From IMG/VR virus record IMGVR_UViG_3300035208_003217: a stretch of 64,000 nt of DNA, one strand, 5' to 3'. Below are positions 9,968 to 55,352 of the stretch, piece by piece; the stretch's first letter is position 1; every line of letters begins with the position of its first letter. Below the pieces are notes generated by a model. It saw only the letters and a list, made by a program, of their open reading frames with translations. It was not told the DNA's origin and searched no databases. The translations under genes and the position numbers were made by a program. The DNA comes from a virus.

Positions 9968-9972
9968 TTTAG

Positions 9973-31962: not shown

Positions 31963-32035
31963 TCCCGTCTAGCTCAATTGGATGAGCATCTGTCTTGTAA
32001 ACAGAAGGTTGTGGGTTCGATCCCCACGATGGGAT
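31963..32035 (+). tRNA. tRNA-Thr (anticodon UGU)
   Basis: Acceptor TCCCGTC pairs with GATGGGA. D-stem GCTC/GAGC. Anticodon stem TCTGT/ACAGA around loop CUUGUAA. T-arm GTGGG-TTCGATC-CCCAC. Length 73 nt. Confidence 0.8.
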
Positions 32036-32041
32036 CATAAT

Positions 32042-39096: not shown

Positions 39097-39097
39097 T

Positions 39098-39334: not shown

Positions 39335-39395
39335 AGTTTTAATATAATTCCCAGATCGGTTCCTGGGTTATCAAAGAATCGTTAACATAAAATTT

Positions 39396-40136
39396 ATGCC
39401 AAATCCACAAGATTTAAAAATGGAAGTAAATGCAGCAATTGATGCTGCCGCTGAAGTACCTTCCACTCCAGCAGAAAATGTATCCTCAACTCCAGAGGTA
39501 AAAGAGTCAGTTGTAGAGCCAGTTGCTCCAATTGAGAAAGATCCGTTAAAGTTAAAAGAGCAGATTGACAATCTAAATATAGCTCTAAAAACAGAAAGAG
39601 ATTCTAATAAAACAAAAATTGAAGAAATGAAAAAGAAACTCGAAGAATCTGTTTCTAGCTATGAAAAGATTAAGAATGTTTTTGCTCCTCCACAAGAGGA
39701 AAAACCTCAAGAACCTATTTACGCCACATCAGATGATGTTGATAAGGCTGTTGAAAAAAAACTTCAAGCATTGAAAGAGGATCAAATCCAAAATCAAAAA
39801 GTTGAAGAATATAAGAAAGAAATTAAAAGCCTTGAAACAGAATGGGATGGACAAAATGGAAAACCAAAATATGATGATGAGGAAGTTCTAAATTGGCAGA
39901 GAGAAAATGAGAAAACTTATCTTTCTCCAAAGGATGCTTTTCTTCAGATGAAGCACAATGAACTTCTTGATTATGAGGTAAAACAAAGACTTTCTGGTGT
40001 CAAACCTGTTATAGAAGTAGAAAAACCTTCTTCAATGTCTGGTAATCATCCATCAGGTGATTCAGTTAAAAATGCTGATATTAACACTAGAGATGCTATT
40101 AGACAGGCAATGGAAGAAGTATCAAAAGAGATGTAG
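39396..40136 (+). CDS. putative scaffolding protein
   Basis: 246 aa, acidic and Glu/Lys-rich coiled coil, between portal and capsid. Confidence 0.5.
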   Translation: MPNPQDLKMEVNAAIDAAAEVPSTPAENVSSTPEVKESVVEPVAPIEKDPLKLKEQIDNLNIALKTERDSNKTKIEEMKKKLEESVSSYEKIKNVFAPPQEEKPQEPIYATSDDVDKAVEKKLQALKEDQIQNQKVEEYKKEIKSLETEWDGQNGKPKYDDEEVLNWQRENEKTYLSPKDAFLQMKHNELLDYEVKQRLSGVKPVIEVEKPSSMSGNHPSGDSVKNADINTRDAIRQAMEEVSKEM

Positions 40137-40182
40137 CTTAAAAATTAAGTTATATTCTATACTGAAATAGAATCAAAATAAT

Positions 40183-41403
40183 ATGGGACAATCTGTCTCT
40201 AATTTAGCCAATGCGGCTATGAGAGTCTACGATAAGGTTGTTCATGATCAAGTATTTCAAAAGAATGTTTTATTCATGAATATCTTACGTAATGTTGCTC
40301 AAGAAATTGGTGCAACTACAAAATACATTTCTCTTCATTATGATAGAAATGTAGGATCTGCTGCTGGAAGTGAAACAGTTGTTTTACCTATTGCTGGCAA
40401 TCAACAATACTTACAAGCTAATGTTACAATGAAATACAACTTTCATACAGTTAGTATTACAGATGTAGCTATTAAAGCTTCAGCAAGATCTAAAGAGTTT
40501 TTGGTTAATGTTCTTGAATCCGAATATCAAGGTGCCAAGAATGATATGCAAAGACAGTTAAGTCGTCAAGGTTATGGTATTGGTACTGGTGTTATCTGTC
40601 GTGTGAATGGAACTCCTTCACAAGGTGCTACATCAACAGTTACATTAGATACTCCAATGATTGGAAAATATCCAACAGATTATATTTCTATTGGAAATGG
40701 ATTAATGTTTTCAAGTGCTGCTGCCGCTGAAACTTCAGCTGTCTTTGGAACAGTATCTTCCATTCCGTCCAATACTACTTTAGTTTTTTCTGATGCTACT
40801 GGTGTTGCTGATGATGATTATGTATTTTTAGCACATACCAATGGTAGTACTCCAACAGTTTCCAATCTTAATGCCGAAATGATGGGTCTCAAAGGACTTA
40901 TTGATGATGGTGCTAATATTGATAGTTTTCAAGGTTTAGCTCGTACTACTTACAAATGGTGGCAATCTTATGTTGATGATGCTTCAACTCAAAGATCATT
41001 AACAGATGCTCTATTACATTCTACTTTTTTGGAAGCTAAAAAGAAAGGTGATCCGAAGTATATTTTAACATCTTTTGATGTTACTTCTGCTTATGGACAA
41101 CTTTTAACTCCAGATCGTAGATATGGTGTAGAGTTAAAACTTGAAGGTGGATTTTCCGGAGTTGGATTCAATGGTATTCCTATGGTAGCTGATTTTGATG
41201 CTCCATATGATGAAGCTTACTTTATTGATCCGAGTACATTATCTGTTGAAGATTTAGCTCCTATGTCCTTCTTACAAGAAGATGGTGCTATCTTAAATAG
41301 AAGTTCAACTCAACCAATTTGGAATGCTACTCTTCGTTACTATGCTAACTTAGCAAATAGCGCTCCAAATCAAAGTTCTGCTCTTCGTGATATCGTTAAA
41401 TAA
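40183..41403 (+). CDS. putative major capsid protein
   Basis: 406 aa ORF downstream of the scaffold gene. It is followed by a strong GC hairpin. Assigned by gene order only. Confidence 0.5.
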   Translation: MGQSVSNLANAAMRVYDKVVHDQVFQKNVLFMNILRNVAQEIGATTKYISLHYDRNVGSAAGSETVVLPIAGNQQYLQANVTMKYNFHTVSITDVAIKASARSKEFLVNVLESEYQGAKNDMQRQLSRQGYGIGTGVICRVNGTPSQGATSTVTLDTPMIGKYPTDYISIGNGLMFSSAAAAETSAVFGTVSSIPSNTTLVFSDATGVADDDYVFLAHTNGSTPTVSNLNAEMMGLKGLIDDGANIDSFQGLARTTYKWWQSYVDDASTQRSLTDALLHSTFLEAKKKGDPKYILTSFDVTSAYGQLLTPDRRYGVELKLEGGFSGVGFNGIPMVADFDAPYDEAYFIDPSTLSVEDLAPMSFLQEDGAILNRSSTQPIWNATLRYYANLANSAPNQSSALRDIVK

Positions 41404-41413
41404 TTAACAAGTA

Positions 41414-41443
41414 TCCCTCCCTTCTTAATTGAGGGGAGGGGGG
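41414..41443 (+). terminator. GC-rich stem-loop after the capsid gene (CCCTCCC...GGGAGGG)
   Basis: Stem of 7 to 8 bp with 100% GC in a roughly 30% GC genome, 11 nt after the capsid stop. No clear U-tract, so it may be a terminator or a stabilising hairpin. Confidence 0.5.
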
Positions 41444-42049
41444 CAACTATTCAAAAATATGATAAAAGATCGAAATTTAGATCTATTAGCAAGAAAACAG
41501 TATACAATTCTACATCCAGATGTTGCTGCAAATAGTATTGTTAATGGAGAAGATATTTCTGCAGGTACAGTTGCTGCTGCTACTCTGGTAAAAACATTAC
41601 TAGATTATCCTCGCAACTTGCTTTATACACTAGCTGACAATTCATCTAATACATTAGAAGCAGTTTTTACTGTAGTTGGTGAAGATCAATTTGGTGAAGT
41701 TGTTACTGAAGTTGCTTCAGTGGATTATAGTGTAGCCGCAACAACTGATGGAACTCAAATCTTTTCGAAAATTACTTCTATAAAGATTGTTCCTACAAAT
41801 AATGCAGCTTCTGATACAGCTTCAGTCGGTGTATCAATTACGGCTGATGTTGCTTCATTTGGATTACCAGATAAAATTGGTGCAATTACTGATGTAAAAA
41901 ATGTTGTTTTTGATGATGCTGGAACTGTTAAAGTTCAAAATATTGATTCAACATCAGTAGTATTAGCTAGAAATTGCTTTAGACCAGAACAGACTGTTGC
42001 TGCTGCTGATAATTATATTATCATCTATAAAAGTACAGGTTATCGATAA
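41429..42049 (+). CDS. hypothetical virion protein (Ala/Thr/Val-rich, possible decoration protein)
   Basis: 206 aa. The likely real start is MIKDRN at 41459. Confidence 0.4.
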   Translation: MRGGGQLFKNMIKDRNLDLLARKQYTILHPDVAANSIVNGEDISAGTVAAATLVKTLLDYPRNLLYTLADNSSNTLEAVFTVVGEDQFGEVVTEVASVDYSVAATTDGTQIFSKITSIKIVPTNNAASDTASVGVSITADVASFGLPDKIGAITDVKNVVFDDAGTVKVQNIDSTSVVLARNCFRPEQTVAAADNYIIIYKSTGYR

Positions 42050-42149
42050 ATAATTAAATAATTATAAGGTGCCTATGACAGATATCTGTCTTCGTAGAAT
42101 AGGCTAAGCGGCGCGTGAGAACGGCCTTATAATTTAACTTAACAAGCAT

Positions 42150-42461
42150 ATGAAATTAAGAAACAATGGAGGTTCCTTTATTGTAATCTTCTCTGGAAAA
42201 GATTATCCGGTGCCATCAGGAGAATTTGAAGTTTTCTCTGATCAATTGGGATATTTTATTCTTGGTAGAGCTGCAAAATGGGGGAAAGATGTTATTTCTG
42301 TAGATGAAAAAAAGATGGAAGATATTCGTCCTGATATTAAAGAAGTAGAAGTTAAAATTGTAGAACCTGTTGAAGAAGTTATAGTTGATGCTGTCGAAGT
42401 ATTAACTAGTGGAACTGTAACAAAAACTAAAACAAAAATCAAAGAAGTAGAAACTAAATAG
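42150..42461 (+). CDS. hypothetical structural protein
   Basis: 103 aa. Confidence 0.4.
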   Translation: MKLRNNGGSFIVIFSGKDYPVPSGEFEVFSDQLGYFILGRAAKWGKDVISVDEKKMEDIRPDIKEVEVKIVEPVEEVIVDAVEVLTSGTVTKTKTKIKEVETK

Positions 42462-42462
42462 T

Positions 42463-42771
42463 ATGAGAAATATTAAGAAGTATGATAAACTTCTAAAAAC
42501 CAAAAGAAATATTGATGGTTCTATTCAGATAGTTCGTCAAAGTCCATTTAATAGTCAAAGACAATTTGAAATTATTGATATAAAAAATGAATATTGTGGA
42601 AGTTTTAGATGGATTTTAGATCAATTAATTAAAATGGATACAAGAAAATTTGATATTGTTGGAAAAAGTATGCGAAATAATTTAGCTATTCGAAATCGAA
42701 AAGATGATGATAGAATGACTAAAGATATTGCGGACTTTTGGGAAGTTGGAGGTGAATCAATAATTACTTAA
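42463..42771 (+). CDS. hypothetical structural protein
   Basis: 102 aa. Confidence 0.4.
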   Translation: MRNIKKYDKLLKTKRNIDGSIQIVRQSPFNSQRQFEIIDIKNEYCGSFRWILDQLIKMDTRKFDIVGKSMRNNLAIRNRKDDDRMTKDIADFWEVGGESIIT

Positions 42772-42852
42772 TTAAATAATTTGATTTTTGTTATGAGAGG
42801 GGGGCAAGTTTAACTTGACTCTCAGTAAGAAAAATTAAGTTATATCAATCCT

Positions 42853-43734
42853 ATGTTAATGGATAAACAATCAAAGATTACCGCAAAACGTGGTATGCCT
42901 ATTGATTTAACAAACATCGCAAAAAAAACTGTTACTAAAAATTCAGAAACTGTACAGTTATATTATTTTAATGGTACAACTTATACAATAGATGGTGGAC
43001 AAGTAGCTGGAACGGTTGTAGTTGGAAAAACTGCTTATGATCCAATTATTGGTCGTATTAATGGTAGTGTAGCATCTTATCAAGATTCCTCGTTATCATT
43101 TACATGTGCTGCTCTTACAACTGAAGTCGAATTAGAAGAAAATGCTTTTGAAGCGGCAGATTATTTAAGTCCTTCAGATAGAGCAATCTTTCTTACAAGA
43201 AATTTTGCTAATGGAGAATATTGTATTGATTATAAAAAAGGTATAATTTATGGAGTAAAAGCAACTACGGCAACTTCTTTAACATCAGTTCGTTATAGTA
43301 TTGCGGCAATTGTTACAATTGAATTTGCTGATGGACCTTCCACAAGTCCAAGTTCTTCACCTTCTTCTAGTAGATCAACTTCTATTTCAAGTTCACCATC
43401 AAGTTCTGTCTCACCATCTACCTCACCTTCAACAAGCCCTTCTTCTTCAGTATCTCCAAGTACCTCACCTTCAACATCTCCTTCTAGCAGTAAATCGACT
43501 TCACCTTCCTCTTCACCTTCTTCCTCTCCTAGCAGTTCTGAATCACCGTCAACAAGTCCTTCTAGTTCTGAATCAACATCTCCATCAACCTCTGAGTCTA
43601 CATCACTTTCCTCAAGTCCAAGTAGTTCTCCGTCTACATCACCTAGTTCTTCAGAATCCCCATCAACCAGTCCGTCATCTAGTCCAAGTAGTTCAGAATC
43701 TTCTTCTCCTTCAAGTTCTCCATCTGGAGCTTAA
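42853..43734 (+). CDS. virion-module protein with C-terminal Ser/Pro/Thr-rich low-complexity repeat tail (about 140 aa)
   Basis: A 150 aa globular N-terminal part, then PSTSPSSSPSSSRSTSISSSPSSSVSPSTSPSTSPSSS... running to the C-terminus. Confidence 0.6.
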   Translation: MLMDKQSKITAKRGMPIDLTNIAKKTVTKNSETVQLYYFNGTTYTIDGGQVAGTVVVGKTAYDPIIGRINGSVASYQDSSLSFTCAALTTEVELEENAFEAADYLSPSDRAIFLTRNFANGEYCIDYKKGIIYGVKATTATSLTSVRYSIAAIVTIEFADGPSTSPSSSPSSSRSTSISSSPSSSVSPSTSPSTSPSSSVSPSTSPSTSPSSSKSTSPSSSPSSSPSSSESPSTSPSSSESTSPSTSESTSLSSSPSSSPSTSPSSSESPSTSPSSSPSSSESSSPSSSPSGA

Positions 43735-43752
43735 TAATTAATTAATAAATTT

Positions 43753-43953
43753 ATGAGAAACACTTTAATTAAAATCTTAACTTGGTTAAGTGGAAAAAAG
43801 GGTGCTATTGCCACAATTTTAATGGGTATTGTTGCTTATTTAGCAACAAAATCAATTTTTGGTGAAGCCGAAGTAGTTTTGGTTACGTTAATTATTGGAA
43901 CATTATTTGGCATAACAAGTCATTTAACTGGAAAGTTAGTATATAAAAAATAA
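43753..43953 (+). CDS. small two-helix membrane protein (holin-like)
   Basis: 66 aa with two hydrophobic helices and a Lys-rich C-terminus. Confidence 0.35.
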   Translation: MRNTLIKILTWLSGKKGAIATILMGIVAYLATKSIFGEAEVVLVTLIIGTLFGITSHLTGKLVYKK

Positions 43954-43973
43954 AGTAGATTAAATTTAAAGTT

Positions 43974-44279
43974 ATGACCGAAGATCAAAATACAATTGCT
44001 AATCAAGTCCAAACTGAGAGTATAGTTAAAAAGATATTAACCTCGGAGGTTAAATATATTATTGGAATTGTTATTTTTCTAGTAGGAGTTGTTGCTCCAT
44101 ATTATGATATTAAGACTGAGATTGCCCTAATTAAACAAAATCATATAGCTCATATTGAGACAATGGAAAAACAGATTGAAACCAATTCTACTGATATAAA
44201 GAGTTTAACAGAGACGCAGGTTAAACTAATGACAGTTATTGCCGAAAATAGTGTAAGGTTAACAAACCTAGAAAAATAA
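43974..44279 (+). CDS. membrane-anchored coiled-coil protein
   Basis: One transmembrane helix (YIIGIVIFLVGVVAPYY), then a coiled coil. Confidence 0.35.
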   Translation: MTEDQNTIANQVQTESIVKKILTSEVKYIIGIVIFLVGVVAPYYDIKTEIALIKQNHIAHIETMEKQIETNSTDIKSLTETQVKLMTVIAENSVRLTNLEK

Positions 44280-44280
44280 T

Positions 44281-45222
44281 ATGAATTTTAACGACCGAAA
44301 ATTTGGTTTGATTGAAGGTAAGAAGATAACTGACTATATTGCTGGTTCAAGTTCGCCCATTGTTAGAAAGAAATTAACAGATGGTGATTGGATAAATTAT
44401 AAACCAGAACATGAACAACAATTTAATAGTGAGAATCTTTATGATACTTTAATGTGTGTTACCTTCGCAACTTTAGATGCTCTTGAAACATTGTTTATGT
44501 ATCATTTACATAATGGAAACGTTTCTAAAGAGGATGTTGTATGGTTAAAAGAAAAAGGATACTTTAAGAATGGATTTATTAATTTTAATGATAGATTTTC
44601 GGCTATTAATGGAGAAACAAGTATTCATGGAGCATATCAATTCGCAGTTATAGATGGCATTAGACATAAAGGTTGTATTCCTCAAGATATATTTCCAATG
44701 GCTAATAATTTTATAGATAATATTGATCCTAAATTTATTACCCAAGAAATGTATGGTTTAGGAAAAGAATTTGTTAAGAGATTTCCAATTTTATATGAAT
44801 GGGTAGATAATAAAGATATCCACGAATATTTACAGTATGCCCCTCTAACTGCTTCTGTGCGTTATGATAGTGGAGATAATATATTAGATCCAATAGGTAG
44901 TCCAAATCATAGGATAATGGTATATAAAGCTACAGACGAATTTATTGGAGTTAATGATAGTTATGAGGAATTTAAAAAATATAATCCAAGTAAAGTCTAT
45001 TCTTATATGGCATTTTATTTGGAAACAAAAAATGATATGATATTAAAAAAAGAGAAAGGTAGTTCAGCAATTTATTTAATTAATGAAGATAACAAAACAA
45101 AAACAATGATTGTTGATATGCCTACGCTTGATTCATTAGGAGGAATATTTGAAGAGGTAGATAGTTTACAAATGTATTCAGATAAAGGAACTCTTATCTG
45201 GACTGAAAGAATTATAAATTAA
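44281..45222 (+). CDS. hypothetical protein (possible Cys/His peptidase-like)
   Basis: 313 aa with a conserved-looking Cys (DTLMCVTFATLDALE) and a distal His (SPNHRIMVY). The call is weak. Confidence 0.3.
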   Translation: MNFNDRKFGLIEGKKITDYIAGSSSPIVRKKLTDGDWINYKPEHEQQFNSENLYDTLMCVTFATLDALETLFMYHLHNGNVSKEDVVWLKEKGYFKNGFINFNDRFSAINGETSIHGAYQFAVIDGIRHKGCIPQDIFPMANNFIDNIDPKFITQEMYGLGKEFVKRFPILYEWVDNKDIHEYLQYAPLTASVRYDSGDNILDPIGSPNHRIMVYKATDEFIGVNDSYEEFKKYNPSKVYSYMAFYLETKNDMILKKEKGSSAIYLINEDNKTKTMIVDMPTLDSLGGIFEEVDSLQMYSDKGTLIWTERIIN

Positions 45223-45223
45223 T

Positions 45224-46036
45224 ATGTTATCAATAATAATTCCAAGTTATAAAGATCCATATCTTCATAAAACAATAGATTCTCTTTTAGAAAATGCTGA
45301 AGGAGAAGTAGAAATAGTTGTTGTATTAGATGGATATCAGCCTACTATACCAATAAAAGAAGATAAAAGAATAAAAGTTATTCATTTAGGAAAAAATAGA
45401 GGAATGAGAGGAGCTATAAATGCTGGAGTATTAGTATCAAAAGGAGAATATATAATGAGAACTGATGAACATTGTTTATTTGGAAAAGGATATGATATTA
45501 TTCTTACAAAAGATATTGAAAATAATTGGATTGTTACTCCTAGACGTTATTTTTTAAATCCAGTAGATTGGAAAATAATGGATATTCCTCCTACAGATTA
45601 TGGAGACTTAAAGATACAAGGAACTGGTTCAGGAAGAAAATTTCATGGTCAAGAAAATAAAGAACTAGCAGAACAAAGAAAGAATATCATGATTGATGAA
45701 ACATTTGCTATGCAAGGTAGTTGTTGGATAATGAGACGATCTTGGTGGGATAAAGTTATTGGAGAACTTCAAATAGAAGGATATGGACCTCTCTATCAAG
45801 ATAGTCATGAAATGGTTTTTAAGACTTGGAAAGCAGGAGGCAAATTAATGGTTAATAAAAATACTTGGCACGCACATAAACATAGAAGCTTTAATAGAAC
45901 ACATAGCAATGGAACAAAAGAAAATCCGTCTAATAATGAAGCTTGTTTTGCTTATTCACTTAGTGTTTGGGAAGATTATTATAACGAATTAAAACAAAAT
46001 GGCAGATTTGACTATACTGTTCTTGACAAACAATAA
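45224..46036 (+). CDS. family 2 glycosyltransferase (GT-A)
   Basis: N-terminus LSIIIPSYKD...EIVVVLDG is typical of GT2 (IIP.YN then DD/DG). It is a paralog of the ORF at 49356..50321 (shared WHAHKHR / WYAHMFR region). Confidence 0.65.
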   Translation: MLSIIIPSYKDPYLHKTIDSLLENAEGEVEIVVVLDGYQPTIPIKEDKRIKVIHLGKNRGMRGAINAGVLVSKGEYIMRTDEHCLFGKGYDIILTKDIENNWIVTPRRYFLNPVDWKIMDIPPTDYGDLKIQGTGSGRKFHGQENKELAEQRKNIMIDETFAMQGSCWIMRRSWWDKVIGELQIEGYGPLYQDSHEMVFKTWKAGGKLMVNKNTWHAHKHRSFNRTHSNGTKENPSNNEACFAYSLSVWEDYYNELKQNGRFDYTVLDKQ

Positions 46037-46691
46037 GGTTCCTAAAAAATGGGCGGAATATCATTTTCAGAAATTAAAAGAAGCTGCAGGAGAATACCCT
46101 ATAATAACCATTTCAAGAATTCCAATGTCAGGAATAAATTTAATACAGACAGAATCAGAAAGTTCTTCGAATATTTATTGGCAATTATTAAGAGGTGCAA
46201 AACTTGCCGAGACTGAATATATTGCAGTAGCAGAGGATGATACACTTTATACTAAAGAACATTTTCATTCATTTAGACCTGATGGGGTATTTGCTTATAA
46301 TCTAAATCGTTGGACTTTATATACTTGGGGTGAACCTATTTATTCTTTAAAAAACTTTATAAGAACCAATGCAGTTTTAATTGCTCCTAGACAATTAGTT
46401 ATTGAAGCATTAGAGGAAAGATTTGCTAGATATCCACATGATATGAAAAATATTCCGTTAGGGATGTGTGGGGAGCTTGGATACTTTGAAAAGGAATTAG
46501 GAATAACATTAAGACGAGCAATTGAATTTAAAACAATAGAACCAGTTGTTCAATTCGACCACGATTATTTTACAGGGGATAATTCAGAGAAAGGATTAAA
46601 AAGAAGACATACAAAAATATTAGGAACCATAAGAGCTTATGATATTCCTGTATGGAGAAAAGCAAAAGATTTAGTAACAAAATTTATATGA
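45999..46691 (+). CDS. paralog A of a 3-member tandem family (putative nucleotide-sugar transferase-like)
   Basis: Shares AEDDTLY, TWGEP and LIAPR.L.IEALEERFA blocks with the next two ORFs. Confidence 0.45.
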   Translation: MADLTILFLTNNKVPKKWAEYHFQKLKEAAGEYPIITISRIPMSGINLIQTESESSSNIYWQLLRGAKLAETEYIAVAEDDTLYTKEHFHSFRPDGVFAYNLNRWTLYTWGEPIYSLKNFIRTNAVLIAPRQLVIEALEERFARYPHDMKNIPLGMCGELGYFEKELGITLRRAIEFKTIEPVVQFDHDYFTGDNSEKGLKRRHTKILGTIRAYDIPVWRKAKDLVTKFI

Positions 46692-46809
46692 TAGAAAATA
46701 TTAAAAAAAGAATTCCTTGGAATAAAGGTAAAAAAGGATTACAAATAGCCTGGAACAAAGGATTAAAAAGAAAAAGAATATTGGACAAATTATTTTAAAA
46801 TTAAAATGT

Positions 46810-47493
46810 ATGAAAATTAACGACATCACCGTTATTTATTTAACAGCAAGTTTAATTCCGGAAGAATTTGGAAAATTTCAAAGACAAACTTTAATAGATG
46901 CTATTGGAGATACTGCTTTAATTAGTGTATCAAGAAAACCTTTAGACTTTGGAATTAATATTATAGACGATGGGAAAAAGTGTACACACAATATATACGT
47001 CCAAATGTTACGAGCTGCTAAAATGGCTACTACAAAATATATAGCCATAGCGGAAGATGATACTTTATATCATGAAACACACTTTACATTTCATAGACCA
47101 GCAGATGATGTATTTGCTTACGACCAAAATAGATTAGCATTGTTTACTTGGGGTGAACCAATGTTTCACTGGAGAAATCGTCGAAGTAATTGTTCATTAA
47201 TTGCTCCTCGTGAACTTCTTATTGAAGCTCTCGAAGAACGATTTGCGAAATGGCCGAATGGAATTCCTGAAAATATTGTTGGAGAATTAGGAAGAGGAAT
47301 GGTTGAAAGAAATTTACATGTTATTGAACGTAAGTCAGAAGATGTATTTAATAAATTTTCCTTAATTCAGTTTAATCATGAAGCAGCATCAGAAAAAAGA
47401 CAAAGATTACATCGAAAATCATATGGTCCGATAAAAGCCTATGATATTCCAATCTGGGGCAAGGCTGGCGAATTAGTTAAAAAATATGTTTAA
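46810..47493 (+). CDS. paralog B of the tandem family
   Basis: AEDDTLY, TWGEP and LIAPRELLIEALEERFA. Confidence 0.45.
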   Translation: MKINDITVIYLTASLIPEEFGKFQRQTLIDAIGDTALISVSRKPLDFGINIIDDGKKCTHNIYVQMLRAAKMATTKYIAIAEDDTLYHETHFTFHRPADDVFAYDQNRLALFTWGEPMFHWRNRRSNCSLIAPRELLIEALEERFAKWPNGIPENIVGELGRGMVERNLHVIERKSEDVFNKFSLIQFNHEAASEKRQRLHRKSYGPIKAYDIPIWGKAGELVKKYV

Positions 47494-48145
47494 AGATTCA
47501 TATACTATCATCTATTATACCGGAAATCGTGAAAATTCTGAATTTGAAAAAAAGATAGTTGATAATTTAAAAGAACAAGCAGGTGATATACCAATTATAA
47601 GTGTCTCACAAAAACCAATGGATTTAGGAAAGAATATTTGTGTTGGTAATGTGGGATTTTCTTATTTAAACGAATGGAGACAGATATTAATTGGAGCTAA
47701 AGAAGCAACAACACCTTACATTATATTTGCTGAATCAGATTTTCTTTATCCTAAAGATTATTTTAAATTAATACCAAAAGGTTTAATGTATGTATATGAT
47801 AATATTTGGATTGTAATGGATAAAAAATATGGTGATTGGTTTTGGAGAAAGAAACAATCAGAAGGAGCACAAATTGTAGATAGAAAACTTTTAATAGAAA
47901 GATATACAGAATTTTTAGCAGGATATCCAATGTGGTGGGAAGGAGAAATAGTAATAGGTAAAAGAGGAAATAGTCCTTTATGTGGTGTTGCTTATGAATA
48001 TTTTACAGGAGACCCAGCAATTAGTTTCAAAACTGGAGATGGATTAAGAACAGTAACAAATGTTATTAAAAAAGATAAAAAAGAAAAACTTCCATTTTGG
48101 GGGTCTATAAAACAATTAAGACAAAAATATTATGAGGTTAACTAA
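47486..48145 (+). CDS. paralog C of the tandem family (more diverged)
   Basis: Collinear with paralogs A and B (AESDFLY). Confidence 0.4.
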   Translation: MFKDSYTIIYYTGNRENSEFEKKIVDNLKEQAGDIPIISVSQKPMDLGKNICVGNVGFSYLNEWRQILIGAKEATTPYIIFAESDFLYPKDYFKLIPKGLMYVYDNIWIVMDKKYGDWFWRKKQSEGAQIVDRKLLIERYTEFLAGYPMWWEGEIVIGKRGNSPLCGVAYEYFTGDPAISFKTGDGLRTVTNVIKKDKKEKLPFWGSIKQLRQKYYEVN

Positions 48146-48614
48146 AAATTGGAGTAGTCATATGGCTATGCTTATTAAAACAATAATGCTAACAGATAAA
48201 CCAGTACTGGAAATTGGTTCAGGATTATTTAGTACTCCTCTTATGCATTGGCTATGTAAGATGCGAGGTCTTAAATTAGTTACATATGAAAATATAGAAG
48301 AATATTATAAATTTGCTAAAGGATTTCAAAGTCCTAATCATCGAATTAAATTTGTCAAAGATTGGAATGAAATTGATTTAAAAACTCATTGGGGAGTTGT
48401 TTTAATAGATCATCATCCAAGTGAACAAAGAGGACTTGATGCTATTCGTTTAAAAGATAAGGCAGATTATTTAGTATTACATGATTCAGAAAAACCAGAA
48501 TTTTATAACTATGAACAAGCATACCCACATTTTAAATATAGATTTGATTGGATAGAGTGTAAACCTTGGACAACAGTACTTTCAAACTTTAAAGATTTAA
48601 CAAACTTAAAATAA
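48132..48614 (+). CDS. class I SAM-dependent methyltransferase-like protein
   Basis: Motif I VLEIGSGLFS (hh(D/E)hGxGxG). Confidence 0.5.
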   Translation: MRLTKNWSSHMAMLIKTIMLTDKPVLEIGSGLFSTPLMHWLCKMRGLKLVTYENIEEYYKFAKGFQSPNHRIKFVKDWNEIDLKTHWGVVLIDHHPSEQRGLDAIRLKDKADYLVLHDSEKPEFYNYEQAYPHFKYRFDWIECKPWTTVLSNFKDLTNLK

Positions 48615-48618
48615 ACGT

Positions 48619-49377
48619 ATGACAACAAAAATTTATGGATTAGGGTGGGTTGGTAAAGCTATGAAGACTCTTTTTCCGGAGTCATTAGTTCACGACCCAC
48701 AACAAGGATTATTTAGTGAAGAAAAATGTGATGTAGCATTTATCTGCGTTCCTACTCCATTAAAAGATGGAAAATTAGACACATCAATTGTAGAAAGTGT
48801 TATTAAAAATTGTGAAGAAGATTTAATAATTTGTCGTTCTACTGTGATGCCTGGAACTTGTGATAAGTTAGAAAAATTGGGAAAAAATATTGTCTTTCAA
48901 CCTGAATATTTAGGCGAAACAGTTAATCATCCAATGACAGATCAAAAAGCAAGACCATTTTTAATATTAGGAGGTAAGCCTGAAAACAGACGCAAGGTTA
49001 TAGAGCTTTATCAAAAATGCTATAACGCAAATATAACAATCAGACAGGTTAGCAATTACGAAGCAGAAATTATAAAGATGACAGAGAATCGGGCAATCGC
49101 ATTTAAAGTTGCTCAATGTCAAGAGTTATATGATGTATGTCAAGCTGCTGGTGTAGACTATTATACTATTCGCGATGCTGTCTATGGAGATGATCCTCGC
49201 TTTAACCTATGGTTTACATTTATATTTCCAGAAGCAAGAGGTTTTAATTCTAAATGTATTCCTAAAGATATTTATGGTTGGGCAAGTTGGGCGGAGTCAG
49301 TTGGTTGTATTCCTGAATTAACAAAAAAATTATTAGAAGTAAATGATAAATTAATATGCCAAAACTTAGTATCTTAA
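48619..49377 (+). CDS. UDP-glucose/GDP-mannose dehydrogenase family protein (short form)
   Basis: Rossmann GLGWVG, ICVPTP, STVMPGT and the catalytic-Cys motif GFNSKCIPKD (cf. GGSCFPKD). The usual C-terminal domain is absent. Confidence 0.6.
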   Translation: MTTKIYGLGWVGKAMKTLFPESLVHDPQQGLFSEEKCDVAFICVPTPLKDGKLDTSIVESVIKNCEEDLIICRSTVMPGTCDKLEKLGKNIVFQPEYLGETVNHPMTDQKARPFLILGGKPENRRKVIELYQKCYNANITIRQVSNYEAEIIKMTENRAIAFKVAQCQELYDVCQAAGVDYYTIRDAVYGDDPRFNLWFTFIFPEARGFNSKCIPKDIYGWASWAESVGCIPELTKKLLEVNDKLICQNLVS

Positions 49378-50321
49378 TACCATCAAGAAATGAAATGTTT
49401 CTTGGCAGAACAGTACAGGATATTCTTGAAAATATAGAAGACGATACTGAAATTATAGTTGGACTTGATGGATGTAAAGATAATTCAGAAATATTAAGTG
49501 ATCCACATGTTGTCGTAGTCAGAGTTGCTGAAGCTATCGGACAAAGAGCAATGACAAATTTATGTGCTAGATTATCAAAAGCAAAGTACCTAATGAAAGT
49601 TGATGCACATTGTTCATTTGATAAAGGATTTGATAGAAAGATGATAGAAAGAATGAAAGATAATTGGACAATGGTACCAACAATGAGAAATTTATGGGCA
49701 TATGATTGGAAATGTAATAATTGTGGTTGGAAAATGTATCAAGGACCTACTCCTCAAATTTGTCCAAGTTGTGATAAGAAAGGAAAGATAAGAAGAAAGA
49801 TGATGTGGATTGGAAAAATAAAACCACAAAGTAATTCTTACTGCTTTGATCAAGAACCACATTTTCAATATTTCAATGAATATACAAAAAGAGATGAATA
49901 TAAAAAGATGCTTGCTGATACTGGATTAACTGAAACAATGTCATTACAAGGTTCATGTTTTATGTTAACAAGAGAAAAGTATTGGGAATTAAATATCTGT
50001 GATGAATCATTTGGTAGTTGGGGAAGTCAAGGAATTGAAGTAGCTTGTAAAACTTGGTTATCAGGAGGAAAGGTTGTTGTTAATCACGATACTTGGTACG
50101 CTCATATGTTTAGGACTCAAGGAGGGGATTTTGGATTTCCTTATCCTCAATCTGGAACAAAAGTACAACAAGCAAAACAAACAGTAAGGGAATTGTTTTA
50201 TGATAATCGTTGGGAAGGTCAAGTTAGACCACTGTCGTGGTTAATCGAGAAATTTTGGCCAGTCCCAGGATGGGATGAAGATGCAAGACAGAAATTGCTG
50301 GCGTGGCCACTAAAGAGATAA
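49356..50321 (+). CDS. family 2 glycosyltransferase with inserted zinc ribbon
   Basis: LSILIPSRNE...IIVGLDG and an inserted CNNCGW...CPSCDKK zinc ribbon. Confidence 0.65.
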   Translation: MPKLSILIPSRNEMFLGRTVQDILENIEDDTEIIVGLDGCKDNSEILSDPHVVVVRVAEAIGQRAMTNLCARLSKAKYLMKVDAHCSFDKGFDRKMIERMKDNWTMVPTMRNLWAYDWKCNNCGWKMYQGPTPQICPSCDKKGKIRRKMMWIGKIKPQSNSYCFDQEPHFQYFNEYTKRDEYKKMLADTGLTETMSLQGSCFMLTREKYWELNICDESFGSWGSQGIEVACKTWLSGGKVVVNHDTWYAHMFRTQGGDFGFPYPQSGTKVQQAKQTVRELFYDNRWEGQVRPLSWLIEKFWPVPGWDEDARQKLLAWPLKR

Positions 50322-50336
50322 TAATTAATAAATAAT

Positions 50337-52856
50337 ATGGCTAATCAAAAATTAACAGAACTTTCAGAAGACGCAACACCGTTAGATACAGATATAACTT
50401 ATGGTGTAAAAGACCCAACTGGATCTCCGTCTTCTATAAAATGGGCTTGGTCTACTTTAAAAACCTTTTTAAAGACTTATTTTGATACGTTTTATCAAGC
50501 TATTGGTTCTTATGAAGTAACGACTAATAAAGAAACCTCCACCGCCTCTAAAGGAGGAGTATTAAGGAATATAGACGGAGCAGTAGGGGATGTGGCACAG
50601 ACTGGGACAGGTTGGATTGAAGATGAGAAGTATGGTTTTGGGTTAGTGCGAACAGCCACCGCCGTTTCTGCTGAATTTGATAGTGCCGTTACAAGAACTG
50701 GCAGGTTAACATTAAAATTATCTACAACAGATGCGACTGGTAATTTATTAGTAGCTACAATGGGGACAACAGGAGCTTCACTTGGAGCTACAGCTTCTAA
50801 ATATGGCATACCATTAAAACCATCTACTACATATAGACTATCTTGTTATGTAAAAACTTCTGCTGTTGGTTCTGTAACATTAGGAATACACGAACATAAT
50901 TCTACAGGCACAAGACTGGCTACTGGTTCATTTACTACGAGTGCTTTAACAGGAACAAATGACTGGGTTCTTTTAACTAAAACAGGAATTACAAACGCTT
51001 CCACCGCCTTTGCTAATTTAATATTAAATAATCCTGGAACAGGTGGAGCATCTGACGCTTGGTTTGATGTTAATTCAATGACCCTTGAAGAAGTAGTAAC
51101 CGACACCACCTTTACTGGTAAGGTAGCAGAAAAGATAAGACCAGTATTACAAGCTGTTACTTCAACTGATAACATTGACCAGTCTTTAGACCCAACAGGA
51201 GCTTATACTAATACCTATGCTCTTACAAACGCAGTAAATGAGGGGGCAACGCATATTCAGACTTTTACTCCGACTAAAAAATACACCACAAGAATAGGGG
51301 TTTGGGTTGTAGAAGCTGGAACTGGCGTAGATTGGACTTTAGTAGTTCATACCGCTGGAAACGTGGTTGTGGTTTCAAAAACTATTGCCGCTGCTTCTTT
51401 AGTAGAGGGTGCGATGAACTACTTTGATGTGCCAAATATCTGGGCTAGTGGTGCTTTACACTTTCATTTATACGCCTCAGCAACAACTGGAACTCCAACT
51501 TGTAAAGCTAACACCTCTAACGATTTAGAAACTGCTTCTTATATCCAGAACTACGCCAAAAAAACCGAGTCCTTTTCTCTTATTGCTAACGGAATAAAAA
51601 CTCAACTAAAAGCAGATAAAGACGGCTTACTTTCTAATGCTATTATTGATTTAGATAATGGGAAGTATAATTATTATAGGGTTGGTAATAATACTCTAGC
51701 GTATGCTGATATTTTAACCGATATTTACGAGGTTAATACTATTTATGCTTCTGACGGTCCAAACATTGGAAGTGCTGGTAGATATGTTACCTATAAAATA
51801 AACACAATTTTACCAATAAAAAAAGCCTCAATTAAAGCTGTTCTACACGGAGCTTCAACTAGATTTGTTGATATTTCAGTATCGGTAAATAATATTGATT
51901 GGGTGCTATTAAAAACACAAGAAACCGCAGCACATTTTTTTACTGAAAGTTTATTAACAAATATAGCAAATAAGGGAAATATTATTTATGTAAAATTGGC
52001 TTATAGTTCTGGCGGTGCTTCTTATGCCGAGGGATTAGTATTTGAAGCCGACCTTGATACCTCCTCTATTCCTCAAGGACTATTCTATCCTATCGGCTTA
52101 AATCAATTCGCAGAAACTTGGAAAGCAACAGGCACAGTTTTATCTTATGTTTATCGCCAAGCTAAATACACTAATGAATACGGAGTTGTAATGCCTGCTA
52201 TTGAATTAAATAGTTTGTCGAATGGTGCTGGAGCGGCTCTTGGTTACTTACCTCTTAAAATAGATAACTCACAAGAAACTACCCCAGCTATCACAATTCT
52301 TGCTTCTTCTGGCGTGGCTTCTGATACAGTTTTAGACGCTGACGGAGAATATGTCGCTTTATCAAGTGGAGCAACGGAAGGTTCAGTAAATTACCAAGTA
52401 ACGATTACTAAAAATACCCTTTACCTTTCTTCAAATGCCGAAAGTGTAGATAGCACCCAAGACCCCTCACATCAAGGCAACTTTATTATCGGAGTAAGAC
52501 AGCAAGGTTTAACTGACAGGGTTAAGGATGTTGGTAACGAAATAGCTGATATAAAACAAGGAGTGCTGGCAATGGTAAATAGTTCCCCTAAAGTTGGTTA
52601 TGACGCTGGAACGACAGACGCTTATGAGATTACTATTCCTAATTTCACAGGTTATTACGCTGGTATGTCAGTAATATTTAAGGCTAATACCGCTAATACG
52701 ACTGATGCTACTCTAAACATAAATGGTATGGGAGCTAAAGCAATTGTAAAGGGAGTTTCAACTGCTTTATCAACTAACGATATTCTAGCTTTAATGTGGT
52801 GTCAATGTGTTTATGACGGAACTGCTTTCGTGCTTATGAATCCGAGAGCATTGTAA
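50337..52856 (+). CDS. large virion protein (putative tail fibre / receptor-binding protein)
   Basis: 839 aa, Thr/Ala/Gly-rich, located in the tail module. Assigned by gene order only. Confidence 0.4.
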   Translation: MANQKLTELSEDATPLDTDITYGVKDPTGSPSSIKWAWSTLKTFLKTYFDTFYQAIGSYEVTTNKETSTASKGGVLRNIDGAVGDVAQTGTGWIEDEKYGFGLVRTATAVSAEFDSAVTRTGRLTLKLSTTDATGNLLVATMGTTGASLGATASKYGIPLKPSTTYRLSCYVKTSAVGSVTLGIHEHNSTGTRLATGSFTTSALTGTNDWVLLTKTGITNASTAFANLILNNPGTGGASDAWFDVNSMTLEEVVTDTTFTGKVAEKIRPVLQAVTSTDNIDQSLDPTGAYTNTYALTNAVNEGATHIQTFTPTKKYTTRIGVWVVEAGTGVDWTLVVHTAGNVVVVSKTIAAASLVEGAMNYFDVPNIWASGALHFHLYASATTGTPTCKANTSNDLETASYIQNYAKKTESFSLIANGIKTQLKADKDGLLSNAIIDLDNGKYNYYRVGNNTLAYADILTDIYEVNTIYASDGPNIGSAGRYVTYKINTILPIKKASIKAVLHGASTRFVDISVSVNNIDWVLLKTQETAAHFFTESLLTNIANKGNIIYVKLAYSSGGASYAEGLVFEADLDTSSIPQGLFYPIGLNQFAETWKATGTVLSYVYRQAKYTNEYGVVMPAIELNSLSNGAGAALGYLPLKIDNSQETTPAITILASSGVASDTVLDADGEYVALSSGATEGSVNYQVTITKNTLYLSSNAESVDSTQDPSHQGNFIIGVRQQGLTDRVKDVGNEIADIKQGVLAMVNSSPKVGYDAGTTDAYEITIPNFTGYYAGMSVIFKANTANTTDATLNINGMGAKAIVKGVSTALSTNDILALMWCQCVYDGTAFVLMNPRAL

Positions 52857-52953
52857 TATTAGAATTATTACTTATGTTAATCTCAACAAGTAGCTAAATA
52901 TTATACGATGAGCCGAGGGATGTTTGGAATAATTTAATTAATATATATAGATA

Positions 52954-54156
52954 ATGGCTAGTTATTTATTAAAAGAAGATGGGGATTATGTCCTAAAAGA
53001 AGACGGAGATCTGATATTATTAGATGGTGTCTTTTCTAGTCCATCTACTAGTATTAGTTCATCGCCAAGTAGAAGTGTATCAAGCTCACCTAGCACGTCT
53101 TTATCTTTAAGTCCGTCAAGAAGTATTAGTAGTTCAGTATCTCCTTCTACTTCTCCGAGTAGCAGTTTATCTTCTTCTCCTAGTACGTCGGAGTCAACCT
53201 CACCATCTTCATCCGTTAGTAGCTCTATTTCTCCAAGCACCTCACCAAGTTCATCAGAATCAACTAGTATTTCTGATAGTCCCTCCGTATCCGAATCAAC
53301 CTCCCCTAGCAGCTCTCCTTCTGTAAAACCATCTATATCGTCTAGCCCTAGTGAAAGCCTATCATTATCTCCTTCTTCTAGTGAATCAACATCTGAATCT
53401 ACATCAATATCTAGTTCAGTAAGTCCTTCTAGTTCAATTAGTGAATCTCCTTCTAGTTCAGAAAGTACTAGTATTTCTAGCTCTGTGTCTCCATCAACTT
53501 CAATAAGTAGTTCCCCTTCTTTATCTATATCGAGTTCGGTATCACCTTCTACATCGATAAGTAGTTCATTATCTACATCACCTAGTACTTCTATTAGTAC
53601 ATCACCTTCTACATCGATTTCAAGTTCTGAATCTACATCAATTTCCTCTTCAGTATCACCATCTACATCGATTAGTTCTAGTATTTCATTAAGTCCTTCT
53701 AGCAGTATTTCTACTTCCATTAGTAGTTCTTTAAGTTCTTCACCATCAACAAGTCCAAGTCCATCAATCTCTCCTAGTACTTCTCCGAGTAGTTCTATTA
53801 GCACTTCTCCTTCAAGATCTATATCATCGTCAATTAGTAGTTCGATATCAAGCTCAATTTCTTTATCACCTAGTCGATCAATTAGTTTATCTCCTAGTAG
53901 ATCTTTATCGAGTTCTCCGTCAAGTTCTATTTCTTCTTCTATTTCACATAGTCCATCTAGTTCTATTAGTAGTTCGCCTAGTACTAGTATTAGTAGTTCC
54001 GTCTCAGCAAGTCCTTCTCCGCCATCAGATTTTACTCCAAAAGTCTTAAACTTTATTCAAGATAAGAAACCTAAATCAATCTACTTTATTCAAGATAAGA
54101 AACCTAAATCAATCTACTTTATTACGGATAAAGTACCTAAGATATTTAAAAAATAA
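52954..54156 (+). CDS. protein composed mostly of (S-x-S-P-S) Ser/Pro/Thr repeats (about 330 aa) with duplicated LKEDGD N-terminus and FIQDKKPKSIY C-terminal repeats
   Basis: MASYLLKEDGDYVLKEDGDLILLDG, then SPSTSISSSPSRSVSSSPS..., ending FIQDKKPKSIYFIQDKKPKSIYFITDKVPKIFKK. Confidence 0.55.
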   Translation: MASYLLKEDGDYVLKEDGDLILLDGVFSSPSTSISSSPSRSVSSSPSTSLSLSPSRSISSSVSPSTSPSSSLSSSPSTSESTSPSSSVSSSISPSTSPSSSESTSISDSPSVSESTSPSSSPSVKPSISSSPSESLSLSPSSSESTSESTSISSSVSPSSSISESPSSSESTSISSSVSPSTSISSSPSLSISSSVSPSTSISSSLSTSPSTSISTSPSTSISSSESTSISSSVSPSTSISSSISLSPSSSISTSISSSLSSSPSTSPSPSISPSTSPSSSISTSPSRSISSSISSSISSSISLSPSRSISLSPSRSLSSSPSSSISSSISHSPSSSISSSPSTSISSSVSASPSPPSDFTPKVLNFIQDKKPKSIYFIQDKKPKSIYFITDKVPKIFKK

Positions 54157-54160
54157 CAAT

Positions 54161-55351
54161 ATGCCATCATATCTACAGACTAAACAAAACAAAATAAAAA
54201 TTGCTAACCCGCCATTAGAAGATGAAGCAAGAACATATCTAACAGCAGATTGTGCTATTGGAGCCACAACTCTTGCCACACTAGATAATGGAGGATTTAT
54301 TATAACAGGAACATCTGATTATTATATTATTATAGGTGAATATGGATCAGAAAAAGCTGAGATAGTATTAGTCGATGCTAACGGAGCAGGAACATCATCT
54401 ACTGGATTTACAGTATCTGCGACAAAATATTCACATGAAGCTTCAGATCCTATTACTTTTATAAGATTTAATCAAATTTTATTTTATGGAAAAATAGCAA
54501 CAGAAGGAACAAGAGTTCTTTTGTCGACAAAAGAAATAGATTGTTCACAATTATTTACGGATTACACATATGCTGGTGATACTTACAGTTTTTTTGATTC
54601 GGCATATTATAATAGTACAGATGATAAAATATCAGTTTATTCAGATGAAATAGATAATACTTCGTTTACTCGTCAATCAATAAAAAGAATTATAGAATCT
54701 GGTCTTAGAAAAGCATTAACAAAACTTGAAGATAATCCTGAAGCAGAATTAAATTGGGATGTAGCTATTGAAACAGTTCAAGATGGAGTAGACGAAATAG
54801 TTGCTAAAAAAAGACGCTGGCCATTTTTAAGAACAATAAATTCTAGTACATCAACAGTAGCATCTCAACAATATATTGATAAACCAGATGATTTATTATT
54901 ATTAGAATACATTAAAGTAAATTCTAGAAAACTTGACTTTATGAGTCAGACTGATTATAATAACTATACAGCAACAGGAGATACAGTTCCAACAGGACAA
55001 CCTACAAATTATACAATTAAAAATAATAAATTTTATTTATTTCCAACACCTGATGCGGTTTATACCATTATCTTTGAATACTATAAAACAATAGCAGAAA
55101 TTACATCAGATTTATCTACTGAAATTGACTTTCCTTTTATTCCTATTTTAATATATTATTGTGCAGCACAATTTGCTTATATTAGAGGAAATGACAAAAG
55201 AGGAGACAAAATGTATAATATGTTTCTTAAGATACTCGATGACCAGATTATTGAATATTCTGGTCCAGAGCAAATGGGGGATGCTGAATATGTAGAAAAA
55301 ACATCAACTTATAATAGCAATGATGATGCTATAGTTGTCGAATTAGAATAA
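54161..55351 (+). CDS. hypothetical structural protein
   Basis: 396 aa. Confidence 0.45.
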   Translation: MPSYLQTKQNKIKIANPPLEDEARTYLTADCAIGATTLATLDNGGFIITGTSDYYIIIGEYGSEKAEIVLVDANGAGTSSTGFTVSATKYSHEASDPITFIRFNQILFYGKIATEGTRVLLSTKEIDCSQLFTDYTYAGDTYSFFDSAYYNSTDDKISVYSDEIDNTSFTRQSIKRIIESGLRKALTKLEDNPEAELNWDVAIETVQDGVDEIVAKKRRWPFLRTINSSTSTVASQQYIDKPDDLLLLEYIKVNSRKLDFMSQTDYNNYTATGDTVPTGQPTNYTIKNNKFYLFPTPDAVYTIIFEYYKTIAEITSDLSTEIDFPFIPILIYYCAAQFAYIRGNDKRGDKMYNMFLKILDDQIIEYSGPEQMGDAEYVEKTSTYNSNDDAIVVELE

Positions 55352-55352
55352 T

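Follow-up and report, generated by a model that had tools for sequence, protein, structure and literature searches.

Why would a phage keep seven genes for sugar enzymes among the genes that build its particle? We pursue this question in a stretch of viral DNA of 64,000 nucleotides, IMG/VR record IMGVR_UViG_3300035208_003217 (the window), where a gene cassette at positions 45224-50321 encodes five glycosyltransferases, one O-methyltransferase, and one truncated sugar dehydrogenase. An earlier note, made from the letters of this DNA alone, had suggested that the phage glycosylates its own virion proteins with Ser/Pro-rich tails. Every computational test that we ran supports this suggestion. We consider it probable that the cassette glycosylates virion proteins of the same phage that carry Ser-Pro-Ser (SPS) repeats, a prediction that is well supported by comparative genomics.

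The window, at ~64 kb and ~29% GC, is essentially one phage genome; a close relative occupies a 63.9-kb contig. A plus-strand block at ~32-61.5 kb encodes a terminase nuclease domain, GroEL, a P22/SU10-type portal, a scaffold-like gene, the major capsid protein (MCP; 406 aa, 40183-41403, +), and an SU10-type adaptor (54161-55351, +). The cassette comes after the head genes (portal, scaffold, and MCP) and before the adaptor, which places it in the structural module, as the earlier note had it. Its description as seven co-oriented, tightly packed genes also holds: all seven open reading frames (ORFs) are on the plus strand and overlap or lie a few bases apart, with a 118-nt gap (46691-46810) as the sole exception. 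The first and the last encode the related transferases GTa (ORF1; 45224-46036, +) and GTz (ORF7; 49356-50321, +).

The putative acceptors flank the cassette. Candidate acceptor 1 (42853-43734, +) joins a 156-aa N-domain to a 137-aa C-terminal Ser/Pro/Thr tail (aa 157-293, nt 43321-43731) that is 60% Ser and 18% Pro and holds 23 SPS motifs. Candidate acceptor 2 (400 aa; 52954-54156, +), encoded directly upstream of the adaptor gene, consists of a 24-aa N-terminal segment, a repeat of 339 aa (aa 25-363) with 59% Ser and 36 SPS motifs, and a basic C-terminal segment of 37 aa, which is also found in a 711-aa SPS protein of a relative (L001). The Ser/Pro/Thr-rich tails recognized earlier in these two proteins go far beyond chance; the other 59 proteins of the window (15,253 residues) contain 2 SPS motifs in total. 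Ser codons are mixed within the repeats, which indicates that the repeats are maintained at the protein level. The MCP has no Ser/Pro extension.

The repeat genes are easily missed. Read in antisense, a repeat yields a long E/L/G/D-rich ORF, as seen in the window (52986-53804, -) and in two relatives (L250, 14439-15149, -; L251, 15221-16057, -). We rejected the minus-strand ORF of the window as a gene, since it is the complement of the Ser-codon repeat. The public gene calls of relatives hold the antisense ORF in place of the real SPS gene, so that SPS-repeat proteins are largely invisible in annotations. This exposes a blind spot: gene callers substitute antisense artefacts for SPS genes. A separate observation concerns translation. 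The window has 13 tRNA genes (e.g., 9480-9551, 9628-9717, and 31963-32036); among them, tRNA-Ser(UGA), tRNA-Pro(UGG), and tRNA-Thr(UGU) decode TCA/TCT, CCA/CCT, and ACA/ACT, the codons that prevail in the repeats. The phage tRNAs may support translation of the SPS repeats.

The reading rests on the evolutionary coupling of cassette and repeats. For a comparison within the lineage of the window, genomes were selected by their capsid gene, and cassette-negative genomes were counted when at least 6.5 kb of sequence followed the MCP gene. The 5 cassette-positive genomes encode SPS proteins with 14-60 motifs, and the 6 distinct cassette-negative genomes have at most 1 motif. The co-occurrence of cassette and Ser/Pro-tail proteins in related genomes, which the earlier note had proposed to check, thus gives a clean result: genomes have both or neither. 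A portal tree intermixes the two states, yielding 4 sister contrasts, and no genome is discordant. The contrasts are the window and L112 versus L114 (bootstrap 100), L121 versus L122 (76), L115 versus L116 (61), and L127 versus L128, the last within a clade of support 99.

Comparison of individual proteins locates the difference in the repeat itself. A 252-aa protein of L127 has an SPS tail, and its orthologues in L113 and L114 are without SPS (E 5e-36). A 364-aa protein of L121 equals a 160-aa family of L115 plus an internal SPS insertion of ~205 aa (E 5e-35). Acceptor 1 has a homolog in the cassette-negative L116, L117, and L125 that shares the N-domain (43% identity), with a globular C-terminal domain of ~200 aa replacing the tail. 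Since orthologues differ exactly in the repeat, SPS modules must have been gained by different proteins on separate occasions, and in cassette-positive genomes only.

The association extends to other phages. An SPS protein is encoded in 36 of 48 distinct viral loci selected by their GTz homolog, and it stands at most 2 genes after GTz in 25 of the 33 eligible loci. GTa homologs accompany GTz in nearly all of the viral loci so selected (61/62). The flanks carry many PHROG families of head, portal, terminase, and tape-measure proteins, showing that the loci belong to diverse lineages, including long-tailed phages. A reverse search began with [S/T]-P-[S/T]-x repeats in viral contigs; this pattern also catches a TPT type, which was used as a specificity control. 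GTz or GTa together with a paralog of the middle cassette genes was found at 3 of 7 SPS-type loci versus 0 of 70 TPT-type loci.

An unrelated phage with a Mu-like capsid (L210, 6718-12446) connects the repeats with the particle. Here, SPS tails occur on 2 of 3 tandem head decoration proteins of the Phage_cement_2 family; after the cement paralogs come the capsid gene and three GT-A genes that belong to other families, and an RmlA-like gene lies beside them. We weighed whether this locus contradicts a link of SPS repeats to glycosyltransferases and rejected that view, since other GT-A genes adjoin the SPS-tailed cement proteins. SPS tails thus exist on a recognized family of virion proteins, and the idea of an SPS tag reaches beyond the GTz family. 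By analogy with these cement proteins, and from the position of their genes, the SPS proteins of the window are presumably present in the particle.

What do the enzymes add to this picture? GTa and GTz are soluble GT-A glycosyltransferases that score above the gathering cutoff (23.3 bits) of Pfam Glycos_transf_2 (PF00535), with 64.5 bits (E 1.4e-17) and 42.3 bits, respectively, and they are paralogs of each other (31% identity, E 1e-34). These results bear out the two GT2 glycosyltransferases of the earlier note, as well as the Zn ribbon inserted in one of them. GTz (321 aa) carries a Cys4 insertion at aa 118-147 of the form CxxC...CxxC (C120, C123, C136, and C139) that is nearly invariant in 30 homologs; its matches to rubredoxin/Zn-ribbon profiles are weak. 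GTa has a DxH motif (D-E-H-C) and no Zn ribbon, and its best match in PDB is GalT1 of S. parasanguinis (5hea), over the generic N-terminal half only.

The best solved-structure matches of GTz are polypeptide GalNAc-transferases (ppGalNAc-Ts), with E 1.3e-7 in a single-sequence phmmer search of PDB. A profile of 30 sequences reaches 1xhb at E 8.7e-10, covering both halves of the catalytic domain. The motifs align throughout: DAHC of GTz with the DSHC metal motif of the ppGalNAc-Ts, WGSQGIEVACKTWLSGG with WGGENLELSFKTWMCGG, which is the Gal/GalNAc-T motif, and YAHMFR with VGHIFR/VGHVFR, its His falling at the third metal ligand. All 30 sequences have D83, H85, and H250. GTz therefore has the catalytic features that characterize CAZy family GT27, namely the DxH Mn2+ motif and the Gal/GalNAc-T motif with a third His ligand. 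It ends after the catalytic domain, without a lectin match in Pfam and without a hydrophobic segment (maximum Kyte-Doolittle value 0.97). Because a ricin-type lectin domain and a type II membrane anchor are absent, we file GTz as GT27-like and not as a member of GT27. Its motifs make GTz a candidate initiating peptide O-glycosyltransferase, and the specific resemblance of GTa and GTz to ppGalNAc-Ts strengthens the case for a peptide acceptor.

Three further genes follow GTa: paralog 1 (ORF2; 45999-46691, +), paralog 2 (ORF3; 46810-47493, +), and paralog 3 (ORF4; 47486-48145, +). The earlier note had described three tandem paralogs that share an AEDDTLY block. The tandem paralogs stand, ORF3 and ORF4 being 46% and 34% identical to ORF2; the block is shared by ORF2 and ORF3, but ORF4, the most divergent, has the variant AESDFLY, which keeps the invariant Asp. 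Sequence searches gave little: all three fall below the threshold of Pfam Glycos_transf_2 (best E 0.026, for ORF4), PHROG and Pfam assign neither the paralogs nor the methyltransferase, a PDB profile search with the paralogs returned nothing useful, and none of 1087 database homologs of the family has a Pfam domain. For this reason, the paralog and methyltransferase families were settled by structure prediction. The AlphaFold2 (AF2) model of paralog 2 (pLDDT 96.5) has a GT-A fold with an E-x-D metal/nucleotide motif. Foldseek places it closest to SpsA in PDB (E 8.5e-7), followed by the fucosyltransferase WrtF, TarP, and beta4GalT7, and in BFVD it matches GT-A proteins of phages and giant viruses, including a glycosyltransferase of phage Che8 (E 4.4e-5). 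Judged by this model, which also provides the fold of paralog 1, the three paralogs are GT-A glycosyltransferases of a family that has no Pfam model; they bring the glycosyltransferases of the cassette to five.

ORF5 (48132-48614, +) encodes a class I S-adenosylmethionine (SAM)-dependent, COMT-like (cation-dependent) O-methyltransferase. The SAM-dependent methyltransferase with motif I VLEIGSGLFS named in the earlier note is confirmed in both motif and fold. The ExGxG of this motif is invariant, and the invariant residues of the family are E27, G29, G31, H117, and D118. Its AF2 model (pLDDT 96.6) matches the O-methyltransferase 8c9v in a Foldseek search of PDB (E 2.6e-6, TM-score 0.68), then COMT and TrmR. 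Sequence searches found no Pfam match, nothing in PDB by phmmer, and a marginal PDB profile match (E 0.033). The enzyme would O-methylate a sugar hydroxyl. We also note a viral contig of 67% GC (L159) with a homolog of this methyltransferase (4158-4664, E 1.9e-34) and an ORF with 23 SPS motifs; it has no GTz, GTa, or paralog in the sequence examined.

ORF6 (252 aa; 48619-49377, +) is a homolog of NDP-sugar 6-dehydrogenases in miniature. It retains a shortened NAD domain (PF03721, E 7.7e-12, profile positions 75-183) and the central domain (PF00984, E 3.1e-13), and its GFNSKCIPKD falls, in an alignment with GDP-mannose 6-dehydrogenase 1mfz (PDB, E 3.7e-11), at the catalytic Cys motif. The family and the Cys motif of the short UDP-sugar dehydrogenase are thus as the earlier note had them; in addition, the C-terminal nucleotide-sugar-binding domain (PF03720) is absent by Pfam search, and the protein scores below the NCBIfam cutoff for TIGR03026 (110.8 versus 189.8 bits). 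This short form, of 250-286 aa, recurs at about a dozen distinct loci. Two loci from metagenome-assembled genomes (MAGs; L076, 1-1953, and L079, 788-2740) encode GTz and the mini-dehydrogenase as one 650-aa ORF, with 65% (GTz) and 60% (dehydrogenase) identity to the window proteins and a linker of ~75 aa. The fusion suggests that the two act together. The earlier claim that the cassette is enough to make a sugar is not borne out, on two counts: the dehydrogenase is without its nucleotide-sugar-binding domain, and no gene for sugar-nucleotide synthesis is present in the window. The donors must therefore come from the host.

The enzymes and repeats can be assembled into a cytoplasmic system for protein O-glycosylation. 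Late in infection, GTa and/or GTz would take a sugar from a nucleotide sugar made by the host and attach it, as the first of the glycan, to the Ser hydroxyls of the xSPS repeats, using a Mn2+ site formed by the DxH motif and the distal His. The three GT-A paralogs would extend the glycan, the COMT-like enzyme would O-methylate a sugar and so cap it, and the mini-dehydrogenase, together with GTz, would provide or generate a uronic acid. The predicted acceptors, 42853-43734 with its tail and 52954-54156 with its repeat body, would assemble into the particle as a mucin-like glycan brush.

Several points weigh against this reading. An enzyme that resembles GT27 need not act on a peptide; beta4-galactosyltransferases, which act on sugars, have the Gal/GalNAc-T motif too. 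The N-domains of both SPS proteins of the window match no known virion family in Pfam or PHROG. The dehydrogenase has no substrate-binding domain, and its role is therefore puzzling. Two of the remaining SPS loci of the reverse search (L224 and L248) end at the SPS gene and are uninformative for the link. Finally, the same cassette occurs in the chromosomes of ultra-small bacteria of the Candidate Phyla Radiation (CPR, or Patescibacteria), and at MAG loci an SPS protein accompanies it less regularly (10/34; at most 2 genes away in 6/26).

This last point leads to the main alternative, a host-directed auxiliary role. On this account, which we judge unlikely, the cassette glycosylates or re-glycosylates a giant SPS protein or other surface proteins of the host, and the SPS proteins of the phage are incidental or secondary substrates; the purpose could be to block superinfection, to free progeny from debris, or to alter adhesion. 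GTz relatives number in the thousands, at 60-99% identity, and the homologs in species-representative genomes come almost all from CPR MAGs. One Paceibacterota MAG (L088) includes a phage contig that matches a close relative of the window phage almost exactly, and this points to a CPR host. No tblastn match to GTz or the paralog exists in 50,697 GenBank phage records. Chromosomes of Levybacteria encode GTa, the methyltransferase, the paralog, GTz, and the mini-dehydrogenase along with NDP-sugar genes, flanked by TatA/TatC, UppS, PAP2, and L33, and there a protein of 1257-1539 aa that has >200 SPS motifs comes after the cassette. With both cassette and giant SPS proteins in CPR chromosomes, modification of host proteins stays a live rival or an additional role, and it may coexist with virion glycosylation. 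In addition, sugar genes of CPR phages have been interpreted as host-directed auxiliary metabolic genes (AMGs) for surface modification (PMC12911398).

A host-directed role nevertheless leaves unexplained why phage SPS repeats come and go with the cassette within one lineage, each time on other proteins, and why SPS tails sit on head cement proteins. The giant cellular SPS proteins of Levybacteria have no obvious signal peptide, and their surface location is itself unproven. Three of these proteins (L065, L066, and L067, from 12205 onward) have identical N- and C-termini but measure 1257, 1317, and 1539 aa, a sign that repeat number varies rapidly. Their C-terminal domain of ~75 aa recurs in giant SPS proteins from further CPR MAGs and shows weak similarity to viral loci L025 and L026.

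Glycosylation of the phage's own SPS proteins remains the reading that we prefer. A broader version of it is possible, although we hold it as doubtful: CPR bacteria and their phages might share a mucin-type-like O-glycosylation, consisting of a portable xSPS glyco-tag, open to grafting onto any structural protein as a tail, an insertion, or its whole body, and a soluble cassette led by ppGalNAc-T-like initiating enzymes. If true, phage particles would display the same glycan brush as the giant SPS protein of the host, which could serve mimicry, adhesion, or shielding, and in some proteins the brush would stand in for a globular distal domain. On this version, no prokaryotic or viral enzyme family would be closer to the eukaryotic GT27 initiating enzymes, and the mini-dehydrogenase, fused to GTz in some genomes, would work in complex with the transferase and not on a free nucleotide sugar.

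Could the cassette instead build or alter a polymer of the cell envelope? A capsule, a teichoic-acid-like polymer, another exopolysaccharide, or a lipid-linked glycan as the product or target, with the SPS repeats as flexible linkers, is in our judgment quite improbable. Pathways to uronic-acid polysaccharides typically use this dehydrogenase family, cellular GTz loci contain additional NDP-sugar and heptose-type genes, and the N-terminal parts of the glycosyltransferases give weak matches in NCBIfam and PHROG to PgaC, TuaG, and GtrB-like enzymes (PHROG GtrB-like, E 8e-4). These matches, however, lie far under the curated cutoffs and cover the generic nucleotide-binding half only; no cassette glycosyltransferase reaches the cutoff of any curated NCBIfam family. 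A hydrophobicity scan detected no transmembrane segment in any of the seven cassette proteins, and Pfam and NCBIfam searches found nothing similar to a lipid-carrier gene (polyprenyl-phosphate transferase), a flippase, or a polymerase in the cassette. Furthermore, the cassette follows repeats of the SPS type and not those of the TPT type.

We find it equally improbable that cassette and repeats are independent, both being common in CPR-associated mobile DNA and the repeats serving as unglycosylated spacers or fibres. Everything does rest on co-occurrence, the loci are fragments, and 12 of the 48 GTz loci have no SPS protein in the sequence examined. Against this stand the four interleaved gains or losses in one lineage without a discordant genome, the independent acquisition of SPS modules by different proteins in cassette-positive genomes only, and the many unrelated phages in which GTz directly adjoins an SPS gene. 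Glycosylation of modified bases in the phage DNA is extremely improbable: phage glycosyltransferases are classically DNA-modifying and the window has DNA-modification genes, but these belong to the 7-deazaguanine pathway and lie on the other arm; the 20 early or replication-side proteins scanned include no hydroxymethylase, TET, or cytosine-methyltransferase family; the cassette is also found in cellular chromosomes beside SPS proteins; and the transferases are GT-A and ppGalNAc-T-like and do not resemble the T4 alpha- and beta-glucosyltransferase folds that the earlier note had named.

The 7-deazaguanine (preQ) genes are QueF-like (13987-14460, -), GTP cyclohydrolase I (FolE; 14465-15034, -), QueC (15036-15728, -), and a radical-SAM QueE-like gene (16290-16949, -). 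Their presence suggests that the phage DNA is modified by another route, with deazaguanine. An adjoining ORF of 380 aa (12843-13985) has no Pfam match and could be the DNA transglycosylase.

Closer to the cassette, the earlier note had placed it between tail or fibre genes, which does not hold upstream: the interval 43753-45222, between the first SPS protein and the cassette, encodes two small single-transmembrane proteins (66 and 101 aa) and an unassigned 313-aa protein, and no tail or fibre gene. The 313-aa protein shows, by eye, a possible Cys/His peptidase-like pattern, and the three may form a lysis module inside the structural block. Directly after GTz lies a neighbor of the candidate system, an 839-aa protein (50337-52856, +) that we read as fibre-like from a Pfam match to CBM_4_9 below cutoff (E 0.014); it contains no SPS repeats and has no BLAST homolog in the compared loci. 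PDB searches gave no meaningful match for 44281-45222 or for 55353-56819, where the nozzle is expected. A blastn search of 44000-51000 found no nucleotide match among GenBank phages, and a scan for promoters and terminators over 39000-56000 gave counts equal to those of shuffled sequence.

Elsewhere, the window encodes an RNA-repair set, consisting of an RNA ligase (10047-11351, -), a polynucleotide kinase-phosphatase (11441-12307, -), and a Ro60/TROVE-vWA protein (22276-23670, -), with a block of eight tRNA genes (9403-10043) beside it. A GroEL-type chaperonin (PHROG E 1e-131), a Fic/DOC protein, and an SPFH/Band 7 protein are also present (35133-36704, 1556-2074, and 7286-8200). Only the nuclease half of the large terminase (Terminase_3C) is recognizable, at 33253-34236; a conserved 232-aa ORF upstream (32122-32820), across a 141-aa ORF, may be the ATPase half of a split terminase. 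The MCP gene is in two or three pieces in L124, L126, L127, L128, and L129, with ORFs of 180-230 aa between them, and in L124 the terminase-region gene corresponding to 32122 (w32122) is also in pieces. These split structural genes suggest inteins, introns, or homing-endonuclease insertions in the lineage. L251 has a NUMOD3 match after the gene at the nozzle position.

If the proposed function is correct, self-glycosylation is a widespread trait in many phage lineages that infect a huge, uncultured bacterial radiation, and it employs a modular acceptor tag and enzymes unrelated in sequence to those of mycobacteriophages. The system would supply a prokaryotic relative of the eukaryotic enzymes that initiate mucin-type O-glycosylation, with a bearing on the origin of those enzymes. 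The glycosyltransferase "AMGs" of viromes would need another interpretation, and the cassette and its tag would offer a compact, soluble, and genetically portable set for glycoengineering. The searchable literature yielded no description of this arrangement of cassette and SPS repeats.

How does the predicted system compare with known ones? To our knowledge, virion glycosylation has been demonstrated so far only in a few mycobacteriophages. The glycosyltransferases encoded by Che8, Corndog, and Myrna modify structural proteins of their own phages (Freeman et al. 2023, as relayed in PMC11256854, PMC12363180, and PMC12619734). As these secondary accounts describe it, soluble phage glycosyltransferases, sometimes with a methyltransferase, act in the cytoplasm at C-terminal extensions of structural proteins, which resembles the scheme proposed here. 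The Che8 glycosyltransferase shares with the paralog model a generic GT-A fold likeness only (E 4.4e-5), and tblastn against GenBank phages reveals no sequence relationship for GTz or the paralog. Other features set the present system apart: the xSPS module is long, dedicated, and placed C-terminally, N-terminally, or internally; the acceptors would be accessory proteins and not the MCP or tail tube; and the hosts are CPR bacteria, whose chromosomes have the cassette in common with the phages.

The mucin-type enzymes of GT27 are the best solved relatives of GTz, with the DxH motif, the Gal/GalNAc-T motif, and the third His ligand conserved. Like mucins, the presumed acceptors contain tandem repeats rich in Ser and Pro, and Pro at -1 and +3 of the acceptor Ser matches the preferences of GalNAc-Ts. 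Unlike GT27 enzymes, GTz has an inserted Zn ribbon and is without a ricin-type lectin domain, a membrane anchor, and a Golgi context; identity is low and confined to the motifs.

Chloroviruses and other giant viruses bring their own cytoplasmic GT-A and sugar-modifying enzymes to glycosylate structural proteins, and giant-virus glycosyltransferases are among the BFVD fold matches of the paralog. These are eukaryotic viruses, however, with atypical N-linked glycans on the major capsid protein and no repeat tag. The GtrABC glycosyltransferases of seroconverting phages are likewise phage-borne GT2-type genes similar to host genes for cell-surface glycosylation. GtrB uses a polyprenyl-phosphate carrier along with membrane-bound GtrA and GtrC, whereas the cassette has no membrane components; and, unlike GtrABC and the sugar genes regarded as AMGs, the cassette co-varies with acceptor repeats in phage proteins.

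The serine-rich repeat proteins (SRRPs) of Gram-positive bacteria, such as Fap1, GspB, and PsrP, are modified by GtfA/B, Gtf3, and GalT1 (PMC5207161, PMC7948813). As in the scheme proposed here, Ser-rich repeats are glycosylated in the cytoplasm by several soluble glycosyltransferases from a linked cluster dedicated to this task before the protein reaches its final location. The cassette and its neighbors contain neither a Glycos_transf_1/GT-B GtfA/GtfB pair nor a Sec or accessory Sec family; the repeat is xSPS rather than SxSx/SASxSx, and the targets would include virion proteins. The enzymes are unrelated in sequence to those of both the mycobacteriophages and the SRRP clusters, and the likeness to virion glycosylation in the former and to cytoplasmic glycosylation in the latter would be one of function.

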